Source: Kondoa subrosea | Taxonomy: Eukaryota | Direction of reading: 5' to 3' | Assembly (NCBI GenBank): GCA_039545335.1 | Contig: BCIN01000010.1 | Coordinates: 186,001-250,000, forward strand | DNA: 64,000 nt | In this document: positions 2,215 to 22,903 of the stretch, piece by piece | How positions within the stretch are numbered: position 1 is the stretch's first letter | How the letters are laid out: every line of letters starts with the position of its first letter | Made by a program: the position numbers and the translations under genes | The notes under the pieces: model-generated | Seen by the model: only the letters and a program-made list of their open reading frames with translations | Databases searched by the model: none | Told to the model about the DNA's origin: nothing

Positions 2215-3840
2215 AGGATTCGTTCAAAGAAAGCTGGGTACGGATATTTTGGCGTTCCAAGAAAGTACGAGGATCAGTCATGATTCGCTCGCTGCCAAGT
2301 TGGAAAGCATCTTCGACTTCTGTAGCTTGCCATGCTTTTCCGCCGAACAGTGGTGCACCATCACCATCTTCGATAGGCGCACGCTTGGCTTTTGCGGGAT
2401 CCAGCGATACAAAGGCCAGAAACCGGAATCGATAGCCAATTTGGTTTCTTTGAGTACTTCCAAAGCTTTTGATGCACTATTGTCACCCTTGGGCAAGGAA
2501 GCAAGAATGATAGAAGGTCCATCAACTTTGTCGGCTTCGACGAAAGCGCGGACAGTCTGACTGTAGTCGCCATAAACAGCAACTGAAGCAACGTAGCGTT
2601 TCCATAATTCATGGCGAGCGTAAAGTCCAACATCCTTCTTCGCCCTTCTTTCACCATCTTGTACTGCTTCTGGTCCATCGGAAGGCTGAGAATCGGTTAC
2701 GAGAAGATTGACATTGACATTGCTTCGCAGAGCGTGGTGATCACCTATGTACCGAGATCGTAGGACCAAGCATCAGAGCCGATGATCCGGAGATGACTTG
2801 TTAGATGCTGAAGTCTGCAAGTCCAATTGAGAAAGAGCCGGACTTTCATCCAGAAGAGGTGTAATCTTGAATGCCAATGATGCATCACTCGGCAGGCTGG
2901 CCAATCCACAAGCAGCTTTTGAGCTCTGAAGATACCTCTGGACTATGGTTACAGAGCAAGATCGAACAGTGCTGGTCTGTTTGGTTTTCAATGACTGGGC
3001 GGCCAAAACTTTGCCAAGTTCGTGGTCTGGAAAAGTAGCAGGAATGCTTATTGAGGCTCCAGCATTCGGGTCGGAGGCCGCTTTATTCACTAATTCAAAA
3101 CGAGAAACGAGGACCAAAGGTGTTTTCGAGAATCTTGGTATATGCGGTTTCGTGCTTTGGCACTTTGAGTCCGGTAGAATAAGCAGAAGTTGGTACTATA
3201 GTTCTAACAAGGACGGTAGATGATGCAACAGATGATTCGGAAAGAAGGTCCATGAAGTCAGTAACAGCGTTTTTGGCATTGACGGTGCCGATTTTGCCCA
3301 AAGATCTGGAGATGATTTTCGGGTTTTCTGCCCGAGCTTCAACATCCTTGAGGGTAGAGAGGACGTCGAGGAAAAGAGGACTACCGAGCTTGGTTGTGCG
3401 AGTGCAGGCGTGCTCAAGAACAAGTATCCATTTAACAGATTCTGGACGAGAAGTCTTGTTGAGAAAGAAGTCTGGTTGAGAAGAGAGGCAAAACAAGAGA
3501 AAAAGAGGACCACCGAGCTTGGTTATGCGAGTGCAGGCGGGCTCAAGAACAAGTATCCATTTGACAGATATCGATTCTGGTACAAGAGAGAAGTCTTGTT
3601 GAGGACAGAAGCGAAACAAGAGATAGGGAGAGAAGTGCTGCTTCAGCTGGTAGTGTATTGGCTAGGACTTCGATAGATGAGGATCCAGCCAGAGCAATGA
3701 CCAGATCTGGTGGGAGAAGATGATCCATAATGTTTGACAGCTTCACCATCTCCGATCGATCTCGGCATCGAAGAGTAACTTGAGTCGACTGAAGTCTCAA
3801 CGGTTGCTGCTTGCACTCAACCGATTCGTCTGCCTCGTTG
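2215..3840 (-). pseudogene. MET5: Frameshifted internal fragment of sulfite reductase beta subunit
   Basis: Across shifting frames: KHETAYTKILE, IIGSDAWSYDLG*, NVNLLVTDSQP, KKDVGLY/AMNYGNA/YVASVAVYGDYSQ, GPSIILA, LKETKLAIDSGFWPLYRW, FQLGSERI..FLERQN; several indels and a stop; no flavodoxin or siroheme domain. Confidence 0.85.
3371..3622. repeat. Imperfect ~129-bp tandem duplication inside the MET5 remnant
   Basis: aaaagaggac..ccgagcttggtt.tgcgagtgcaggcg.gctcaagaacaagtatccattt.acagat occurs at 3372 and 3501. Confidence 0.9.
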
Positions 3841-5404
3841 TAGATCCTTCTGTTCGGAACGAGGGACTCTCTGCTGTAAATCGCTACGATAGAGGTGTAA
3901 GATCGGCCAAATGAGTGTATAACAGCGGACTCACGATGCCATCTTCGACGTGAGGAGCAAACAATAGTGACGCAAAATCTGGGGCAAGTCGAATTAAACC
4001 AAAAGGGTAGACATAACGAGTACAGGCAAGGGACGCAACACGAAAAGAGTCGCTATGGTAGGATGATGCATTGCAACTGAATACAACCCAACAATCCTAT
4101 CTTTTGCTGAAAGTGCTCTATTCGGCTGGAACTTCAAGTTCGCCGGCGTTGCTGCGAAGACAATAAGCTCAACACAGTGTACTGAACCAAGCGAAATGCA
4201 ACTCACATAGCCTCGATGATATCGTGCTACAAGAAACATGTAAGCGAATGATAATAACTGGAGATGCGAAAAACTCACAGGAGGCTTTCCGTCAACTTGG
4301 CATCCAACAGATTGGCATGTACCCAAGATTCTATTACTCAGTAAGAAGAGAACACATCAGCGAGGTAGATAGCATACTCTTTTACGGTTCCAGATAATTC
4401 TGCAAAAGACCGAAAGTATTACTAAGCAATCCAAAAGCATCTGAATACATTGAGACCAACCTCGAGCCATAGATTTGAATCTCATTTTGCGGGCTATGTC
4501 GATTATCTGATCAAAGGGGATAGAGCCAGAGTGTTCTAGAGCGAGAAATGAGCTCAAAAAGGCATTTCGAGATAAAATCTGAACGTACTGATGTTCTTTT
4601 CCTTCTTTCGCTGTGAAATCAAGCGCATCTTATTAGCCTGCATATCACAGCAGTAAGCGTGAGAACTCACGTCACGAGGAGGTTCTGTCCAAAAGGAAAA
4701 AAGAAATGGTACAGCATCAACAAAGTGAATACCGACAACCAGATCACATGTACAAAGCACCTTTGAGAGCCTTGATGACTAATGAAGAAGCTGAAGGAAC
4801 GACGGAAACTGCTGCTTGACGGTTTTGAATGGTGAGTTGAACAGTGACACGAAGACCTTTCCAGTCGCCGGTGGCTTTTGCGATATCTTCGCCGACTTTC
4901 TTAGGGGCCTGTTATGTTCAAAGCAACAATCAATCAATGTTTGAGACTGATGACTTCGCGCTGAGACTAACAAGACCGAGAGGACCAATTTTGCTAGACG
5001 GATGAATAATACATCAGATACTGTATATGCTTTTGCTGATGCTGAACTTACGGAGCTAGAGCAGAAGAAGCTCCGACTTCACCACCTCTGATTAGCGAGA
5101 TTCCATAAAATTAGCTATCCATTCAATACTTTCGAGCCCAATGAACGAACGTAGCCCTCAGGTAGATGATTTTGATCTCATTGGGCTGTTCAAATAGAAG
5201 GAAAGAGCTCTGAGACTAATTTTTTGCAAGGGACTCGAATTTGATGCTTACATCCATTTTTGGTGGCATTTTGGGCGAGTAACTGCGATATGAGGAAATT
5301 CAGCTACATAAGCATGCGAATAAGAGCTGTTGGAAGCAGTTCTTGACCCACGAGTTGGTTTAAAGAGGGTTACAAGCGGGTGTTGGTCTGTTGCAAGCTG
5401 TCAG
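3841..5404. repeat. Copy B of the ~1.56 kb direct duplication
   Basis: Matches 610-2170; includes orphan GST exons 1-2 (MASDLQQRVPRSEQKDL) at ~3841-3942. Confidence 0.95.
4118..5269 (-). CDS. RPL12: 60S ribosomal protein L12 (uL11), copy B, 12 exons
   Basis: Same exon structure as copy A, intact; head-to-head with RACK1. Confidence 0.95.
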
Positions 5405-17964: not shown

Positions 17965-18039
17965 GGAGGAATCGGGTCAAGTATGCTGCCCATTGATGAA
18001 AATGCAACGACAATGTGAATTTTAATGATGCAGTCGCAC

Positions 18040-18915
18040 TCAATCAATGAGCTGCTTCCTCTTGAAATAACTTCGAAGATAGATCACTTGCCAAGCTCCC
18101 AGCGTAACAAGCGTTGCTGCTGATAATAGTGAGAACCAGCGAACTCGTTGGTTTGTCGACTCTGTCAGATACAGGAATGTCGTTATGAGAATGAGTCTCA
18201 GGCTAGCGAGTCCATACTGACCATTCGTATCACGCATTCGTGCTTCTCTCCTTTTGAGGTAATTCAACTCATCCACAATCTCCTTGACTACTCCTTCCAA
18301 CTTCCTCATTTCTACTTCCAGGCCAGATAGTGATTCTGGTAGCGAGAAACTAGTTAGCCGACCACCACGGCTATGTCGTTCAATCGCTAACCTTGTTTCG
18401 CTATCGCATTGTAATCTACTGCATCTGCTCCAATGTCCACGCTGCGGCAGTACAATCAGCGCAAACGATTGATCATAAGGGAGATACTTACTCTAGATCT
18501 ATAGCCCTCTTGTATTTCGGTGCTTGACTGTCCGGTATTTCTACAACAATTCAACGTGTCAGATTCAATGCACACAGATCCCAGTTTGAGACTGACTGTT
18601 ATCCAAATGATTCCTGAAGCACACTCCCAAATCCGCATCCGCATGAGTAGTGATAGCGATCCTAGTTTCGCCCATAACGTTTCTCTTTGTTTGATAAATG
18701 TTTCGATGATTGGATCCATCAATGACTTCTAAATCCACTCTTTGGTTGCCTAAACCTCCCTTCTCTACATTTGCTGTTATCACTACTAAAGTATCGGCCA
18801 TGGCATAGTTCCAGATGCATTTCAGAGGTGGGTTCGTTGATGCTTGAATATCAAACTTTACAGCCGAAACTAGAGAGGAAGAAAGCAGGAGTAGGATCGC
18901 GTAAGGTAAGAGCAT
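18040..18915 (-). CDS. ERV25: p24 family vesicle protein (TMED10/Erv25)
   Basis: Signal peptide, GOLD domain, [49 protein letters not shown]. Confidence 0.92.
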
Positions 18916-18991
18916 CGTGAGCCAGTCGTAAGGAAGTCGTTTGCGGGCGAAAGTCACTGCATGAGGTTGACCTTCTTCGACGGGCAACGTA

Positions 18992-19185
18992 AAGTCCAAG
19001 TTTTGCTCCAAGTTGAAACTCCAAGTATGCTATGTTACATAGCATACTTGGAGTACTTGGACATGCGGTGTTCCAAGTGCTCCAAGTTCGTCCAAGTCTG
19101 CGTCCAAGTCTTGCCTAGTGGACTTCTCGTGCCCTGCTGAGGCTTTCCTTGACCCCTCTGTGCATCATTTCCAACAAACTTGGAT
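18992..19185. repeat. Cluster of ~10 TCCAAGT/ACTTGGA heptamers with a 37-bp palindrome
   Basis: Copies at ~18995, 19007, 19020, 19046, 19055, 19072, 19081, 19091, 19103, 19178; palindrome ACTCCAAGTATGCTATGT-T-ACATAGCATACTTGGAGT at 19018-19054. Confidence 0.92.
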
Positions 19186-20463
19186 GTTTCTTTAGCTCTG
19201 TGCTATATCATTTCTTCTTCTAGTTCTATGTACTTCAATTATCTCCATTAGCACCTGCTATCCCTCTTGATCTGCAGTANTATCTTGCGTCGTAAATCTC
19301 CTGAGTCTGCATTGCATGCAAGAAATGCGAGCTACGGCTAGCTCTGCTGATTTTCCTGTGTTATTGAGATTGCTCCAGGCAGTCTCCTTGCACGACGGCA
19401 GGACCCGAGATGTCCCTTTGTATTGTTTTCTGCTGAAATGGCCGTCTTCTGCTGTTGTAGTACATTTTGTGTCTCTGAGCGAGCCGATAGCCCTCTGACC
19501 GAGTATTATTAGTGCACAGTCCCAGAAGTACAGTCATAGATCATACAGCAGGAAACTAGAAGCAAGCTGATCTGTCATACAGGTAGCTTATAGGAGGTAA
19601 AAAGGTGCTAGACTGGGATAGCACGAAGGACGGTCGCAGACAGCGGTCAAGCGAAAGAGAAAGAAAAGGAATGAAACACTTAATTATCTTCAGTATCGAA
19701 TGAACGCTAAGCTGGAAGAAAGACAATATGACAGTTTGATCGCGAGTCGACCAGAAGATACTGCGAACACCAGAGAGTCACTCTTCAGGTGACTATCTAG
19801 AGAAATATCTTGTATGGCAGTGCAGCAGAAGCTGCGTTCCCTCCAAGAGAGAGAAGAGAAGTTCTATCAATCAGGTAGTGGTGCTTCAGGATAGTGGAAT
19901 AAGACGGATTGTTGCTTTGATATTTCGAGGCTCGATAAATCAAAAGCATATGTCCGCCAATAACATTGCGACGTCTCAAACAGACGAGAACTTGCAACTA
20001 GGAATTGTGTCCGGGCAGAGCAGCATCTGGCGCGGAAGAAAAAGAGGCTGAAGATTGTAATGCTGATGTACGACATACCTCGATTTCACTATCACAGAAC
20101 TGAAACTTGATAGATTTGACAGCTGCTGCGCACTGCGGAGCAATCACCGAGAAAAAGAGAGTCAATACTCATGTTGGACTGCTTCGGGCTGATGTATATG
20201 TATGTAGACACAAATCCTGAAAGATATAATAGATCGATTCAGCTGAAATAAACCATTTGCTATGCTCGGCTGAGCGCACTTACGTCCATTGCAATAGATA
20301 GTGTGATAATTGCGTACAATGACCCATGCATTGATTGAAAAATTCGGCAGCAGTACCTGAAGCGGAATACTAAAAGCATACACAATGATGCATCAAATCA
20401 TCTGCTTGTCTCGCAGATGTCAAGAAGATCAGACTTACAATGCTTTGACCGGAGATACAAGCA

Positions 20464-20503
20464 TTTTATAAGGGTACTTGGGCGAAACTTGGACTACTTG
20501 GAG
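20464..20503 (-). promoter_or_regulatory. Three CCAAGT motifs directly upstream of TATAAAA on the minus strand
   Basis: Minus strand CTCCAAGTAGTCCAAGTTTCGCCCAAGTACCCTTATAAAA; regulatory role is inferred. Confidence 0.45.
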
Positions 20504-21567
20504 CAAGTGAGCATGACTATTTCGGAGTTCAGAGTTTTAGTCACCACTATTTTCATGCTGGGCGTTACTGCAAGGCCCGATACAGGTATTGAGCAGGTTC
20601 GAGGGGTCTTCGTAGCTTTAGCGTTCGGTTTGTTGTTTCCGAAATACGGTAACGAGATACAGACTGTCGCGCTTGAGATGATCATGCATATGCTACTGAT
20701 CAAGGGAAAGACTTTACTGATGAGCTTGAGCATGCGACATCAAGATCTTACTTACATAAGTTGTTTGCTGTTGAGGATGAAATTTCCTAGACAATACTGA
20801 CAATCAGCTTGTGGTAGATTTATCTTCAGAGATCTCTAGAGAGCCAAAGTGCCATCACACAAGGCGTTATTGCCTGAGAATCACGAACACCGATTAATAC
20901 ATCCGCTACACAAGAAGGATAACTTACCCTTTGACCTACTCGGGAAAACAGCGGTTGATCTATCAGATATTAATGAGACCGCACGAGTGCTGTCAAGATA
21001 ACTTGACGTAAAGCAGCTCTGAGATATAGATAAATAGCGAAAGACAATAAGTGTTCAGCTGCGTTTCGATATTAGATCTGATCTATCGTTCTCATGGAAT
21101 ACTCACTCAGCACAGTCTCTCTGTTCTCATTCATGACCAGCCTTTGTCCAAGTCCAGGACCAGAAGCCCTCGTTGCGTACATGATCATTCAATACATTGT
21201 CAGGAAGCTTTGAAACGAGGCAAGAATAGATTTTGTGTTCAGTGAATACCTTTCATTACTACAGCAGAGAGGATAGTAGGCACAGCCGTACTACAAGGAT
21301 GTAAGTCGCGTAACACACAGGATTGGGTTGCATCGGGTTCAATGAAAACAAATGACAACAGGCAGCGTTGCAACGCGGAAGACGATTAGTCTAATGACCA
21401 ATTGTGCTGTAGTAGATAGTAGTAGAGAAGTGGAGCGATGAATGAGCAAGTCCTCCAAAATGGAAACAAAAAGGTCACAAAGATTGCCGTCGCAAGCAAA
21501 GGACTGGACGGGCGCCAGACTGTTGCGCTGGTGTCGTAGATGATATATTGAGCCACTGCGCGAATGC

Positions 21568-21622
21568 ACTTGGGTGGTACAAGTCCAAGTTATGCTACTT
21601 GGACTTGGACACTTGGAGTTTC
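21568..21622. repeat. Cluster of 5 CCAAGT/ACTTGG motifs with a palindrome
   Basis: CAAGTCCAAGT-TATGCT-ACTTGGACTTG (21580-21607), then GACACTTGGAGTTTC. Confidence 0.9.
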
Positions 21623-21655
21623 TCAGCCCCGCCTTCTTCGAGCACCAACATAAAG

Positions 21656-22903
21656 ATGGCAGCAGCAAACAAGGAGACCGAGAAAGGGATGGCTTTCAAT
21701 GGTCAGTCTGAATGACGCGTGCTCATATATAGTACCGACTGATTTGCGACTGGAATACAGAAATAATGCAAGTGTTGCAAGAGTTCCGTGAATCCTTTTT
21801 CTCTCTCACCTTGTCCCTTTTCTTGTTTCTCATTCTGTGTCTCTTTGTGCAAGCTCTGCAGTGGAAGTAGCTATCCACAATATTCTTTATCTTCGTTCCG
21901 TTTATCCAGCAGGTAAACCCTGTCTGCTAAAAGTGATACATGCAACGCAAGCTCACTAACACCGTGCTGGTAGACCTTTTCGAGAAGTTCAAGAAGTATA
22001 ATGTCCCAGTTTATAAAGCTCGACATCCTCAATTATCTGCTTACGTAGCCGAGATTGTCAAATCAGCAATGGAGAACATCGTCAAGGTACGCTCTCTGTC
22101 TTCTTCTTTTGCTGCTATGTCGTCGTCCTGATAATGATGTAAAAGGGACTAGTCAAAAAACTCATCATCGCTATAAAAGATGCGACGACGGATGAAACGC
22201 TAGAACATTTCGTCTTTTCCCTTATGTGGGTTAAACCATTAGCTTTCTTTGCGAATGAGGATGCAGTACGATCGTTTGTCATTCCCGACTCTTTTGCTAG
22301 CACAATAGCTAAAAGCGTCTCGGATTGTAAACAGATTCGATTCGGGCATGAGTCGAGCAGACGCGGAATTGATGCTTCGTGCTTTCCTCTTGAAATTATC
22401 TACTGTCGAAGCACAACTGGGAGGACTGAAAGAAGGTGAGACTCACTGACTGCTGTTGTTTGCTTTCAAACTCAGGAGTACGAGTGGACACACAGACTTG
22501 ACTTTCTCTGTCATTATTGAATTGGCGGATGACATTAATATACCACATCAACCTGCGGATGAACCAATTCCTTGGTTACCTGCTTCTATGGAGGAAGAAA
22601 GGTTGACTGAAGAAATGTACAAGAATTCTAGACTGCAGTCAGTTCCTCTCATTGGCTTTATTATGATGAAGAAGTGATTTATCAAAAATTCACAGCGCAT
22701 TGAAGTGGACCCAATTAGGCATTGTTGATGTGAGTCTCGTTCGTGTCTTGGTTTGAGCCGATACTGACGGGCGACTGCAGCTATCGCTCCAGGTGGAAGA
22801 ATCGCCGCTGAAGATCCGCTCAGCTCTCAGAGAACAAGAAATGCTATCTTCTGCTGATTCGACACGTTTCACAAAGGAGGAGAAGGGTAAAGGGAAAGCT
22901 TAA
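21656..22903 (+). CDS. REV7: DNA polymerase zeta subunit Rev7 (HORMA domain)
   Basis: EFLEVAIHNILYLRSVYPADLFEKFKKYNVPVYKARHPQLSAYVAE, LEHFVF, LMLRAFLLKL, LTFSVIIEL, IPWLPA. Confidence 0.88.

Follow-up and report, generated by a model that had tools for sequence, protein, structure and literature searches.

The ends of the Ac/Ds and En/Spm transposons combine short terminal inverted repeats (TIRs) with many short repeats, which lie in both orientations in the outer 100-250 bp, and non-autonomous copies of the Ac/Ds and En/Spm types are moved in trans. Short ends with subterminal repeat arrays are found more typically in hAT, CACTA or P elements; hAT elements make target-site duplications of 8 bp, CACTA-like elements of 3 bp and Merlin elements of 8-9 bp. 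To our knowledge, the DNA transposons of Pucciniomycotina yeasts have been little described. Elements of the Mutator superfamily (MULEs) make target-site duplications of 8-11 bp and usually possess long TIRs, while Mutyl of Yarrowia is reported with 9-10-bp duplications and imperfect inverted repeats of 22 bp, as far as the excerpted account goes (PMC6446971); a second account, also in excerpt, gives the duplications of Hop and Mutyl as 9 bp (PMC5014426). T1 of the basidiomycete Cryptococcus deneoformans is an apparently non-autonomous DNA transposon of 2.7 kb with 11-bp inverted repeats, found in few nearly identical copies that are all located between coding regions (PMC9942834), and it makes 3-bp duplications (bioRxiv 10.1101/2020.01.29.924845). 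KDZ1, of the Kyakuja-Dileera-Zisupton (KDZ) elements, has an 8-bp duplication and inverted repeats of 236 bp (PMC11343200).

Here we compare with these systems a gene-free island found in the window, the 64-kb stretch of Kondoa subrosea DNA that was analysed. We propose that the island is very probably a non-coding, non-autonomous cut-and-paste DNA transposon (class II TIR) of 2651 bp with two copies. Like Mutyl of Y. lipolytica and other fungal MULEs, Hop among them, so far as the excerpted accounts describe them, the element lies in 9-10-bp duplications and has short imperfect TIRs, and like Mutyl it occurs in few copies in a yeast whose genome is compact. In those same accounts Mutyl is 7.4 kb long and encodes MudrA and MudrB, whereas the 2.65-kb element has no detectable ORF; its perfect inverted repeat is 4 bp only, compared with the 22 imperfect base pairs of Mutyl, and it carries heptamer arrays, of which none is described for Mutyl there. 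The hosts also differ, being a Pucciniomycotina basidiomycete and an ascomycete, respectively. T1, compared by its description, resembles the element in its basidiomycete yeast host, similar size, short inverted repeats and few copies, but its 3-bp duplications, versus 9-10 bp here, indicate that the transposase families differ. Ac/Ds and En/Spm are similar in having two-orientation subterminal repeats beside short TIRs and different in their 8-bp and 3-bp duplications, respectively, and in their motifs, which are unrelated to that of the element.

Borders, copies and coding capacity

Copy number was assessed with the contigs of two runs, X1 and X2, from one sample of one study; given that both runs come from one sample, which may have supplied the window's own assembly data, they are treated as one line of evidence and not two. 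The k-mer depth of the island contigs is 236-272 in X1 and 91-109 in X2, about twice that of the flanks (139-146 and 49-50, respectively). At exactly 18981 and 21632 the contig graph forks, leading to another pair of flanks at single-copy depth, with exactly one further contig joining at each border among the contigs listed (X1 depths of 149 and 148). The genome contains the element twice, in nearly identical form. Directly outside the borders fixed independently by the contig graph lies the exact direct repeat CCTTCTTCGA, for which the arithmetic chance is ~1e-6. The second locus has its own 9-bp duplication: CTTGATTTT is the last sequence of the alternative left flank and, with the C at 21632 counted, the first of the alternative right flank; these flanks are two separate contigs, and the arithmetic chance is ~4e-6. 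The flank of the second copy resembles a gene start, and the right flank of the second locus is absent from the 64-kb window. The coordinates of all features are given in Table 1.

Table 1. Features of the island and its surroundings (positions in the window)
Feature	Position	Strand	Basis or remark
Transposon	18981..21631	+	2651 bp; borders from contig forks at 18981 and 21632, ~2x k-mer depth
Left target-site duplication CCTTCTTCGA	18971..18980	.	exact 10-bp direct repeat of 21632-21641; abuts contig-fork border
Right target-site duplication CCTTCTTCGA	21632..21641	.	exact 10-bp copy of 18971-18980
Left terminus CGGG	18981..18984	+	inverted partner of 21628-21631
Right terminus CCCG	21628..21631	+	inverted partner of 18981-18984
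Left subterminal array	18995..19109	7 on +, 2 on -	9 exact heptamers, first at element base 15
Tenth left-cluster heptamer	19178	-	exact copy (left cluster of 10 copies, 18995-19178)
Perfect 18-nt palindrome of two facing heptamers	19018..19054	.	inverted-repeat search; DNA fold z-score -5.4
Extra ~347 bases in the other copy	19543..19545	.	3-bp ATA overlap; size inferred from extent of 407-base contig
Internal cluster	20476..20502	-	exact heptamers 20487, 20496; variant CCCAAGT at 20476
Single internal heptamer	21147..21153	+	exact match
Right subterminal array	21568..21617	3 on -, 1 on +	exact heptamers 21584, 21597, 21603, 21611
emp24/p24 (ERV25-like) gene	18040..18915	-	Pfam PF01105 on two exons, E 2e-8 and 1.5e-15
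REV7/MAD2B-like gene, spliced	21656..22436 (3' limit approximate)	+	exon 21937-22128 against solved MAD2B chains, E 1.4e-4

Only ~10 positions and one ~347-bp indel distinguish the two copies, and both duplications are intact, from which we conclude that the element is young; the word "decayed", which the preliminary description had attached to its transposon candidate, is not apt. The indel is seen in a single-depth contig of 57 bases that crosses the 19543..19545 junction and in a single-depth contig of 407 bases that branches at 19543-19572; the extra segment may have been a nested insertion that duplicated 3 bp, or this copy may have lost it. One contig has C for A at 20496; this breaks an internal heptamer, which is probably missing from the other copy. 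An X2 contig covering 20497-20975 at a depth of 201 (~4x) ends in sequencing adapter and is probably an artefact. Neither an empty site nor an excision footprint was seen among the contigs, which can miss rare forms, and no contig bridges the island. By blastn, no part of the element is repeated in the remainder of the window, where two 15-base stretches match it by chance and nothing else does.

The attributes of a class II TIR transposon are found at this locus: a target-site duplication that differs at each insertion, terminal inverted repeats, here short and imperfect, and a further copy at an unrelated locus, the last in one sample only. The perfect terminal inverted repeat is limited to 4 bp, and the aligned ends are 69% identical with gaps needed. 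Of the candidates named at the outset, it is therefore the transposon with subterminal repeats that gains support, from two copies with inverted ends that carry the motif in register, and the check proposed for it, target-site duplications, turned out positive at both loci, with different sequences.

That the island holds no recognisable gene, as had been stated from its appearance, was borne out. Searches of its 12 ORFs against Pfam (E up to 1) returned no credible family and no DDE transposase, the chance-level matches to an avian coronavirus 5b protein (E 0.032) and CagX (E 0.075) being far below the curated cut-offs, and phmmer with the 153-aa ORF found no relative among 1.84 billion representative proteins. 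Given these results, the element is considered non-autonomous. Rfam at gathering scores has no match in the whole window and ARAGORN predicts no tRNA there; the island is not explained by any known structured RNA. A telomerase RNA or other long non-coding gene was also considered and was dropped given the two-copy, duplication-flanked structure.

The TCCAAGT arrays

Exact matches to TCCAAGT/ACTTGGA number 29 on both strands of the window, compared with a mean of 8.83 (sd 3.34, largest 17) in shuffles of the window, none of 100 of which reaches 29. Seventeen of the 29 are within 18995-21617, in three clusters of 10, 2 and 4 plus a single copy, and 12 are in the remaining 61 kb, just as the preliminary description had estimated by eye. 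The density is 6.5 per kb inside the island versus 0.20 per kb outside, and at the outside rate the Poisson probability of at least 17 in the island is ~2e-20. The outside number is close to expectation (~8 by chance), and in those 61 kb no two heptamers are <50 bp apart, nor is there clustering elsewhere. Most start-to-start spacings within clusters were said to be 9-13 bp, and 8 of 13 are. In 15 of the 17 island copies the preceding base is G or C, so that the unit of repetition is in fact an 8-mer (G/C-TCCAAGT).

The layout of the arrays follows the termini of the element. Counted from either terminus, the first heptamer is at base 15, and both face inward. The 12-mer GAAACTCCAAGT is common to both ends in inverted form; the facing copies first noticed by eye, GAAACTCCAAGT at 19015 and its inverted partner ACTTGGAGTTTC at 21611, are present. 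In addition to its exact copies, the right array holds two one-mismatch variants, at 21568 and 21578, and the inverted-repeat search found a palindrome of facing heptamers in it as well. Every heptamer of the internal cluster is oriented like the right end. The TCCAAGT heptamers are the subterminal repeats of the element, and their clusters most likely represent transposase-binding end repeats. The multi-site protein-binding architecture suggested earlier is a reasonable inference, in which the binder would be a transposase.

In the mechanism that we propose, the target of this copy was the very short divergent promoter or 5'-UTR region that separates the p24/ERV25-like gene from REV7, and 10 bp of it were duplicated on insertion. 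A transposase, whose gene would lie at another place in the genome, may bind the G/C-TCCAAGT heptamers in multiple copies, and the bound transposase may pair both ends and then cut at the CGGG/CCCG termini; mobilisation would be in trans.

Superfamily assignment

Granted a transposon, the Mutator superfamily is, given target-site duplications of 9-10 bp, its most likely home, at slightly better than even confidence, duplication length being the one character from which this placement is drawn. The two duplications differ by one base: they measure 10 and 9 bp if the C at 21632 is left to the target, and 9 and 8 bp if it is assigned to the element. Both readings are within the MULE range of 8-11 bp; the symmetry of the CGGG/CCCG termini favours 10 and 9. 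Long TIRs, often >100 bp in MULEs, are absent from the element, but MULEs with short TIRs such as Mutyl exist in the accounts excerpted, so long TIRs are not strictly defining.

That the same transposon belongs to another superfamily (hAT, Merlin or an undescribed one), with the 9-10-bp duplications then not reflecting Mutator ancestry, is possible, though we consider it the less probable assignment. Its perfect terminal inverted repeat is very short, its dense heptamer arrays are closer to those of Ac/Ds, En/Spm, P and Hermes than to long-TIR MULEs, and, if the C at 21632 is part of the element, duplications of 9 and 8 bp overlap those of Merlin. Against this, wherever the borders are set, the two loci do not both show the 8 bp that hAT would need, and the CGGG/CCCG symmetry favours 10 and 9 bp. 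CACTA/En-Spm was rejected, since CACTA-type termini are lacking and the duplications measure 9-10 bp instead of 3 bp, and KDZ was likewise rejected on the 9-10-bp duplications and the 4-bp inverted repeat.

Insertion site and other readings of the island

The divergent ERV25 and REV7 genes reported on either side of the island are indeed its neighbours, identified by PF01105 and MAD2B chains, respectively. Pfam HORMA has no match on single REV7 exons, and the second gene, which we take to be REV7, is so named partly for its general resemblance, beside the match to MAD2B chains. The ERV25-like start codon (CAT at 18913-18915) is 56 bp from the left duplication, and that of REV7 is 14 bp past the right duplication. 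Once the element is subtracted along with one of the duplications, 79 bp remain between the start codons, a distance that fits the small gaps first noticed elsewhere in the window. The terminal arrays are directly upstream of both start codons, at 80 bp (ERV25) and 39 bp (REV7), so that transcription of the two genes has to start in the ends of the element or pass through them; these ends may have promoter activity. The locus is a natural insertion 14 bp and 56 bp upstream of two start codons, which both genes apparently survived.

This proximity raises the alternative that the arrays are a multi-site host enhancer or bidirectional promoter to which a host transcription factor binds and which controls ERV25 and REV7, with the duplication of the island incidental. 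We regard it as very improbable, because TCCAAGT clusters are missing upstream of the other genes in the 61 kb, the interior cluster is near no gene, and the arrays are in register with transposon termini and were carried along to the second locus. A bolder combination, in which we place little confidence, would join a host role with the transposon: the element would represent an undescribed Pucciniomycotina DNA-transposon lineage, with Mutator-length duplications, 4-bp termini and hAT/CACTA-style heptamer arrays, and its ends would now be the only promoters of housekeeping ERV25 and REV7 after splitting their 79-bp shared promoter, so that the arrays would be transposase sites and host regulatory sites at once.

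A segmental duplication by recombination or repair instead of transposition would agree with there being two copies only and with no transposase having been found, but it is very improbable: exact short direct repeats, different at each locus, directly adjoin the element, whose ends are inverted relative to each other and in register, a combination that does not arise by recombination. The least credible reading is that of a short centromere or chromatin boundary defined by its motif. In its favour, the island is the largest gene-free stretch first noticed in the window, and its motif is spaced at about one helical turn. Against it, the ~19-Mb genome contains the sequence twice, both times between target-site duplications, G+C shows no trough (44%, as in the surroundings), and the flank of the second copy resembles a gene start. 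The centromere and the unknown enhancer, both candidates of the preliminary description, thus give way in the face of two duplication-flanked copies, unchanged G+C and no other motif cluster in the window.

With a transposon as the preferred reading, the apparent anomaly of a sole large gene-free gap in a compact stretch is removed, the gap being a recent transposon insertion, and such an insertion is nothing out of the ordinary. The element, a young one with clean borders, two copies and an evident candidate for the bound word, could also be of modest use in tracing the autonomous partner.

For the bare heptamer, the literature matches listed look unrelated by title and abstract (genome announcements, primer tables and similar). 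A metagenome scan for three closely spaced heptamers gave at least 121 loci, most of them plain tandem repeats, none of which is similar to the island by blastn (E up to 1e-3); seven of the loci were inspected by eye. In one metagenome family (L065, L085 and L086), TCCAAGT is repeated at ~10-bp spacing, with one facing copy, beside an element terminus. This family differs from the island in being A+T-rich, in having no blastn similarity to it and in its terminus, CACTACAAG, which we take to be CACTA-like; that the heptamer is common to both is probably a coincidence arising from the scan's selection of matches.

Two copies of one bounded element

The gene-less 2.6-kb island is a young, two-copy, non-autonomous DNA transposon whose subterminal repeats are the TCCAAGT clusters, which makes its explanation an ordinary one. 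This follows from a precisely bounded unit found twice, with target-site duplications around both copies, ends that are inverted with the motif in register, and no transposase gene, and it bears out one of the candidates in the preliminary description, a DNA transposon with subterminal repeats.

The public sequencing runs listed as containing this stretch were two of DNA (X1 and X2) and none of RNA, and the contigs of X1 and X2 were placed on positions 18000-22600; because both runs come from one sample, possibly the window's own source, they count as one line of evidence. The k-mer depths of the flanks are 145.7 and 138.9 in X1 and 49.4 and 49.7 in X2, while those of the island contigs are 235.7 and 272.5 in X1 and 90.7, 98.6, 93.8 and 109.1 in X2, about twice as high in both runs. 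The graph of the contigs splits at precisely 18981 and 21632. At both forks, among the contigs listed (all rows but five), a further long contig with single-copy depth (149.2 and 147.9 in X1) has only the 30-base overlap in common and beyond it runs on into other sequence. The forks and the pairs of single-copy flanks indicate that 18981-21632 is present twice in the genome, at two different loci. One 506-base X2 contig that covers 20497-20975 and ends in adapter has a depth of 201 (about fourfold); it is probably a library artefact, or it could hint at further partial copies. In X1 that region belongs to a single contig of 2089 bases that does not branch.

Immediately outside the borders, which the forks fix independently, the window carries a 10-bp direct repeat, CCTTCTTCGA, in two exact copies. 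The second locus has CTTGATTTT at the end of its left flank, and its right flank starts with the same nine bases, including the shared C at 21632. By arithmetic, the chance of such a repeat is ~1e-6 for 10 bp and ~4e-6 for 9 bp. The duplications are 10 and 9 bp long if the element ends at 21631, and 9 and 8 bp long if the C at 21632 is counted as element, so they differ by one base under both border choices; the former reading is preferred because the termini are then symmetric (CGGG...CCCG). Duplication of the segment by means other than transposition is rejected, since it would not leave the two loci flanked by exact repeats that differ between them.

Heptamer arrays and element anatomy

With both strands counted, TCCAAGT matches the 64-kb window 29 times, compared with 8.83 ± 3.34 times in 100 dinucleotide-preserving shuffles, none of which (0/100) reached 29. 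Seventeen of the 29 lie within 18995-21617 (Poisson probability of at least 17 in the island at the outside rate, ~2e-20), and the other 12, matching an earlier estimate of about a dozen, are scattered over the remaining 61 kb at chance level and without clusters. G or C precedes 15 of the 17 island copies, and 8 of the 13 within-cluster spacings are 9-13 bp, the range the preliminary description had given for most copies. Exact counting also reproduced its cluster layout, with about ten copies on the left, two and a variant in the middle and a single one near 21148; the four copies on the right stood as well, accompanied by two variants. The facing 12-mers noted at the island ends were recovered as an inverted pair by a repeat search.

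Features of the element and of repeats elsewhere in the window
Feature	Position	Description
Flanking direct repeat	18971-18980 and 21632-41	10 bp, exact
Element	18981-21631	2651 bp
Facing 12-mers	19015 and 21611	inverted pair
Left heptamer cluster		10 exact copies
Middle heptamer cluster		2 exact copies, one one-mismatch variant
Right heptamer cluster		4 exact copies, 2 variants
Lone heptamer	21147	1 exact copy
Middle (third, interior) cluster, extent	20476-20502	small, right-end orientation
Outermost heptamers	base 15 from both termini	facing inward
Further heptamers, left end	bases 27, 40, 92, 101, 111, 123 from terminus	facing inward
Further heptamers, right end	bases 23, 29 from terminus	facing inward
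Opposite heptamers	left bases 66, 75; right base 42 from terminus	opposite orientation
Long direct repeat	608-2098 and 3839-5332	~1.5 kb, 3.23 kb apart, 84-97% identity
Short direct repeat	3368-3440 and 3497-3569	73 nt, 93% identity, 129-nt period
Neighbouring second repeat	3462-3507 and 3585-3630	46 nt

Alignment of the two ends revealed that the right end resembles the left end minus its first two heptamers and that both carry GAAACTCCAAGT. Each end contains a palindrome of facing heptamers, the left one being a perfect 18-nt stem with a DNA fold z-score of -5.4. No coding signal was found in the element, in agreement with the earlier statement that it holds no recognisable gene: its 12 ORFs (56-153 aa) gave only two chance-level Pfam matches, a search of 1.84 billion representatives returned no relative for the longest, and no transposase gene was found in the element.

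Subterminal arrays that serve as transposase sites are textbook features of Ac/Ds and En/Spm. We propose that a transposase encoded elsewhere may bind cooperatively to the G/C-TCCAAGT words of both ends before synapsing the ends and making staggered target cuts 9-10 bp apart; the interior cluster may be what is left of an older end, or may provide an extra binding site. An enhancer of a host regulator, also suggested in the preliminary description, is judged unlikely, as the arrays keep register with the termini and heptamer clusters are absent at other promoters in the window. The suggested centromere is made unlikely by the two copies with their target-site duplications, the gene-start-like flank at the second copy and an unshifted composition (island G+C 44%; window 42-48%).

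Divergence of the copies and related elements

Compared with the window, the contigs have ten base differences and a deletion of a single base. All lie within the element, and the 1011 and 998 bases of flank have none. Six of the base differences are in X1 only; at five of those, X2 either lacks a contig or agrees with the window. These six are read as differences between the two copies; for the remaining four and the deletion, either copy differences or window errors could be the cause. By arithmetic, two copies that carry about nine copy-specific sites would have the observed mean depth of 272.5. The window's only N, at 19281, lies in the element, where the assembler probably could not choose between the copies. 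Two single-depth contigs meet the window at 19543-19545: one of 57 bases reads across its junction, and one of 407 bases departs from it, so the other copy probably carries about 347 extra bases there. The junction shows a 3-bp (ATA) overlap, and the extra bases could have arrived as a small nested insertion that made a 3-bp duplication, or this copy could have lost them by a microhomology deletion. The two copies are about 99.6% alike; the insertions are therefore young, not decayed as in one of the candidates first suggested. The other copy has probably lost the heptamer at 20496, which speaks against strong constraint on the interior cluster.

CACTA elements have CACTA termini and 3-bp duplications, and hAT duplications are 8 bp, a length that cannot fit both loci (10/9 or 9/8 bp). 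The duplications of Mutator-like elements (MULEs) are given as 8-11 bp and those of Mutyl of Yarrowia, which has 22-bp imperfect inverted repeats, as 9-10 bp (PMC6446971), or as 9 bp for both Mutyl and Hop (PMC5014426). By duplication length alone, the transposon is probably Mutator-like, Mutator being the best fit among the elements compared; however, MULEs usually have long inverted repeats, which the end alignment did not find in the island element. KDZ1 combines an 8-bp duplication with 236-bp inverted repeats (PMC11343200). T1 of Cryptococcus, a 2.7-kb, non-autonomous, intergenic element with 11-bp inverted repeats (PMC9942834), is the closest analogue in lifestyle, but makes 3-bp duplications (bioRxiv 10.1101/2020.01.29.924845) in contrast to the 9-10 bp of the island element.

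A metagenome scan for three close heptamers found at least 121 loci, most of them simple tandem repeats, and no blastn similarity to the island among the loci listed. Three metagenome contigs (L065 1023-1080, L085 255-377 and L086 281-356) carry an A+T-rich element unrelated to the island, whose terminus reads CACTACAAG, followed by TCCAAGT/ACTTGGA repeats at 10-bp spacing and one facing copy. We take this end to be CACTA-like; the repeats beside it suggest that another transposon family also uses the heptamer as a subterminal repeat, and the element is taken as a curiosity, not as a relative of the island.

The insertion site and its surroundings

The neighbours are as previously named: an emp24/p24 gene (ERV25-like) on the left and, on the right, a REV7/MAD2B-like gene recognised by one exon (E 1.4e-4), with single exons lacking a Pfam match. 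Their start codons are 2740 bp apart, or 79 bp without the element and one duplication. The element inserted into a minimal divergent promoter or 5'-UTR and divided it, with the ERV25-like start 56 bp and the REV7 start 14 bp away. The reconstructed second-locus flank is start-codon-like (...ATAAAGATG) and similar to that of REV7, so that, judging from two sites only, both insertions may be at the 5' ends of genes.

No ATG-started ORF of at least 350 aa was found in the 64-kb window, which indicates that its genes are intron-split, and Rfam and ARAGORN gave no match over the window. Identity of a Sec23 exon to proteins with named sources, which come from Microbotryomycetes and other Pucciniomycotina, reaches no more than 84%; this places the host among the basidiomycete yeasts or fungi of that subphylum, and none of the named species listed is close to it. 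The short direct repeat, next to the second repeat and without a tRNA or Rfam match, sits in a 188-aa ORF with a repeated peptide. The long direct repeat resembles a local segmental duplication in tandem; what was duplicated may be a gene.
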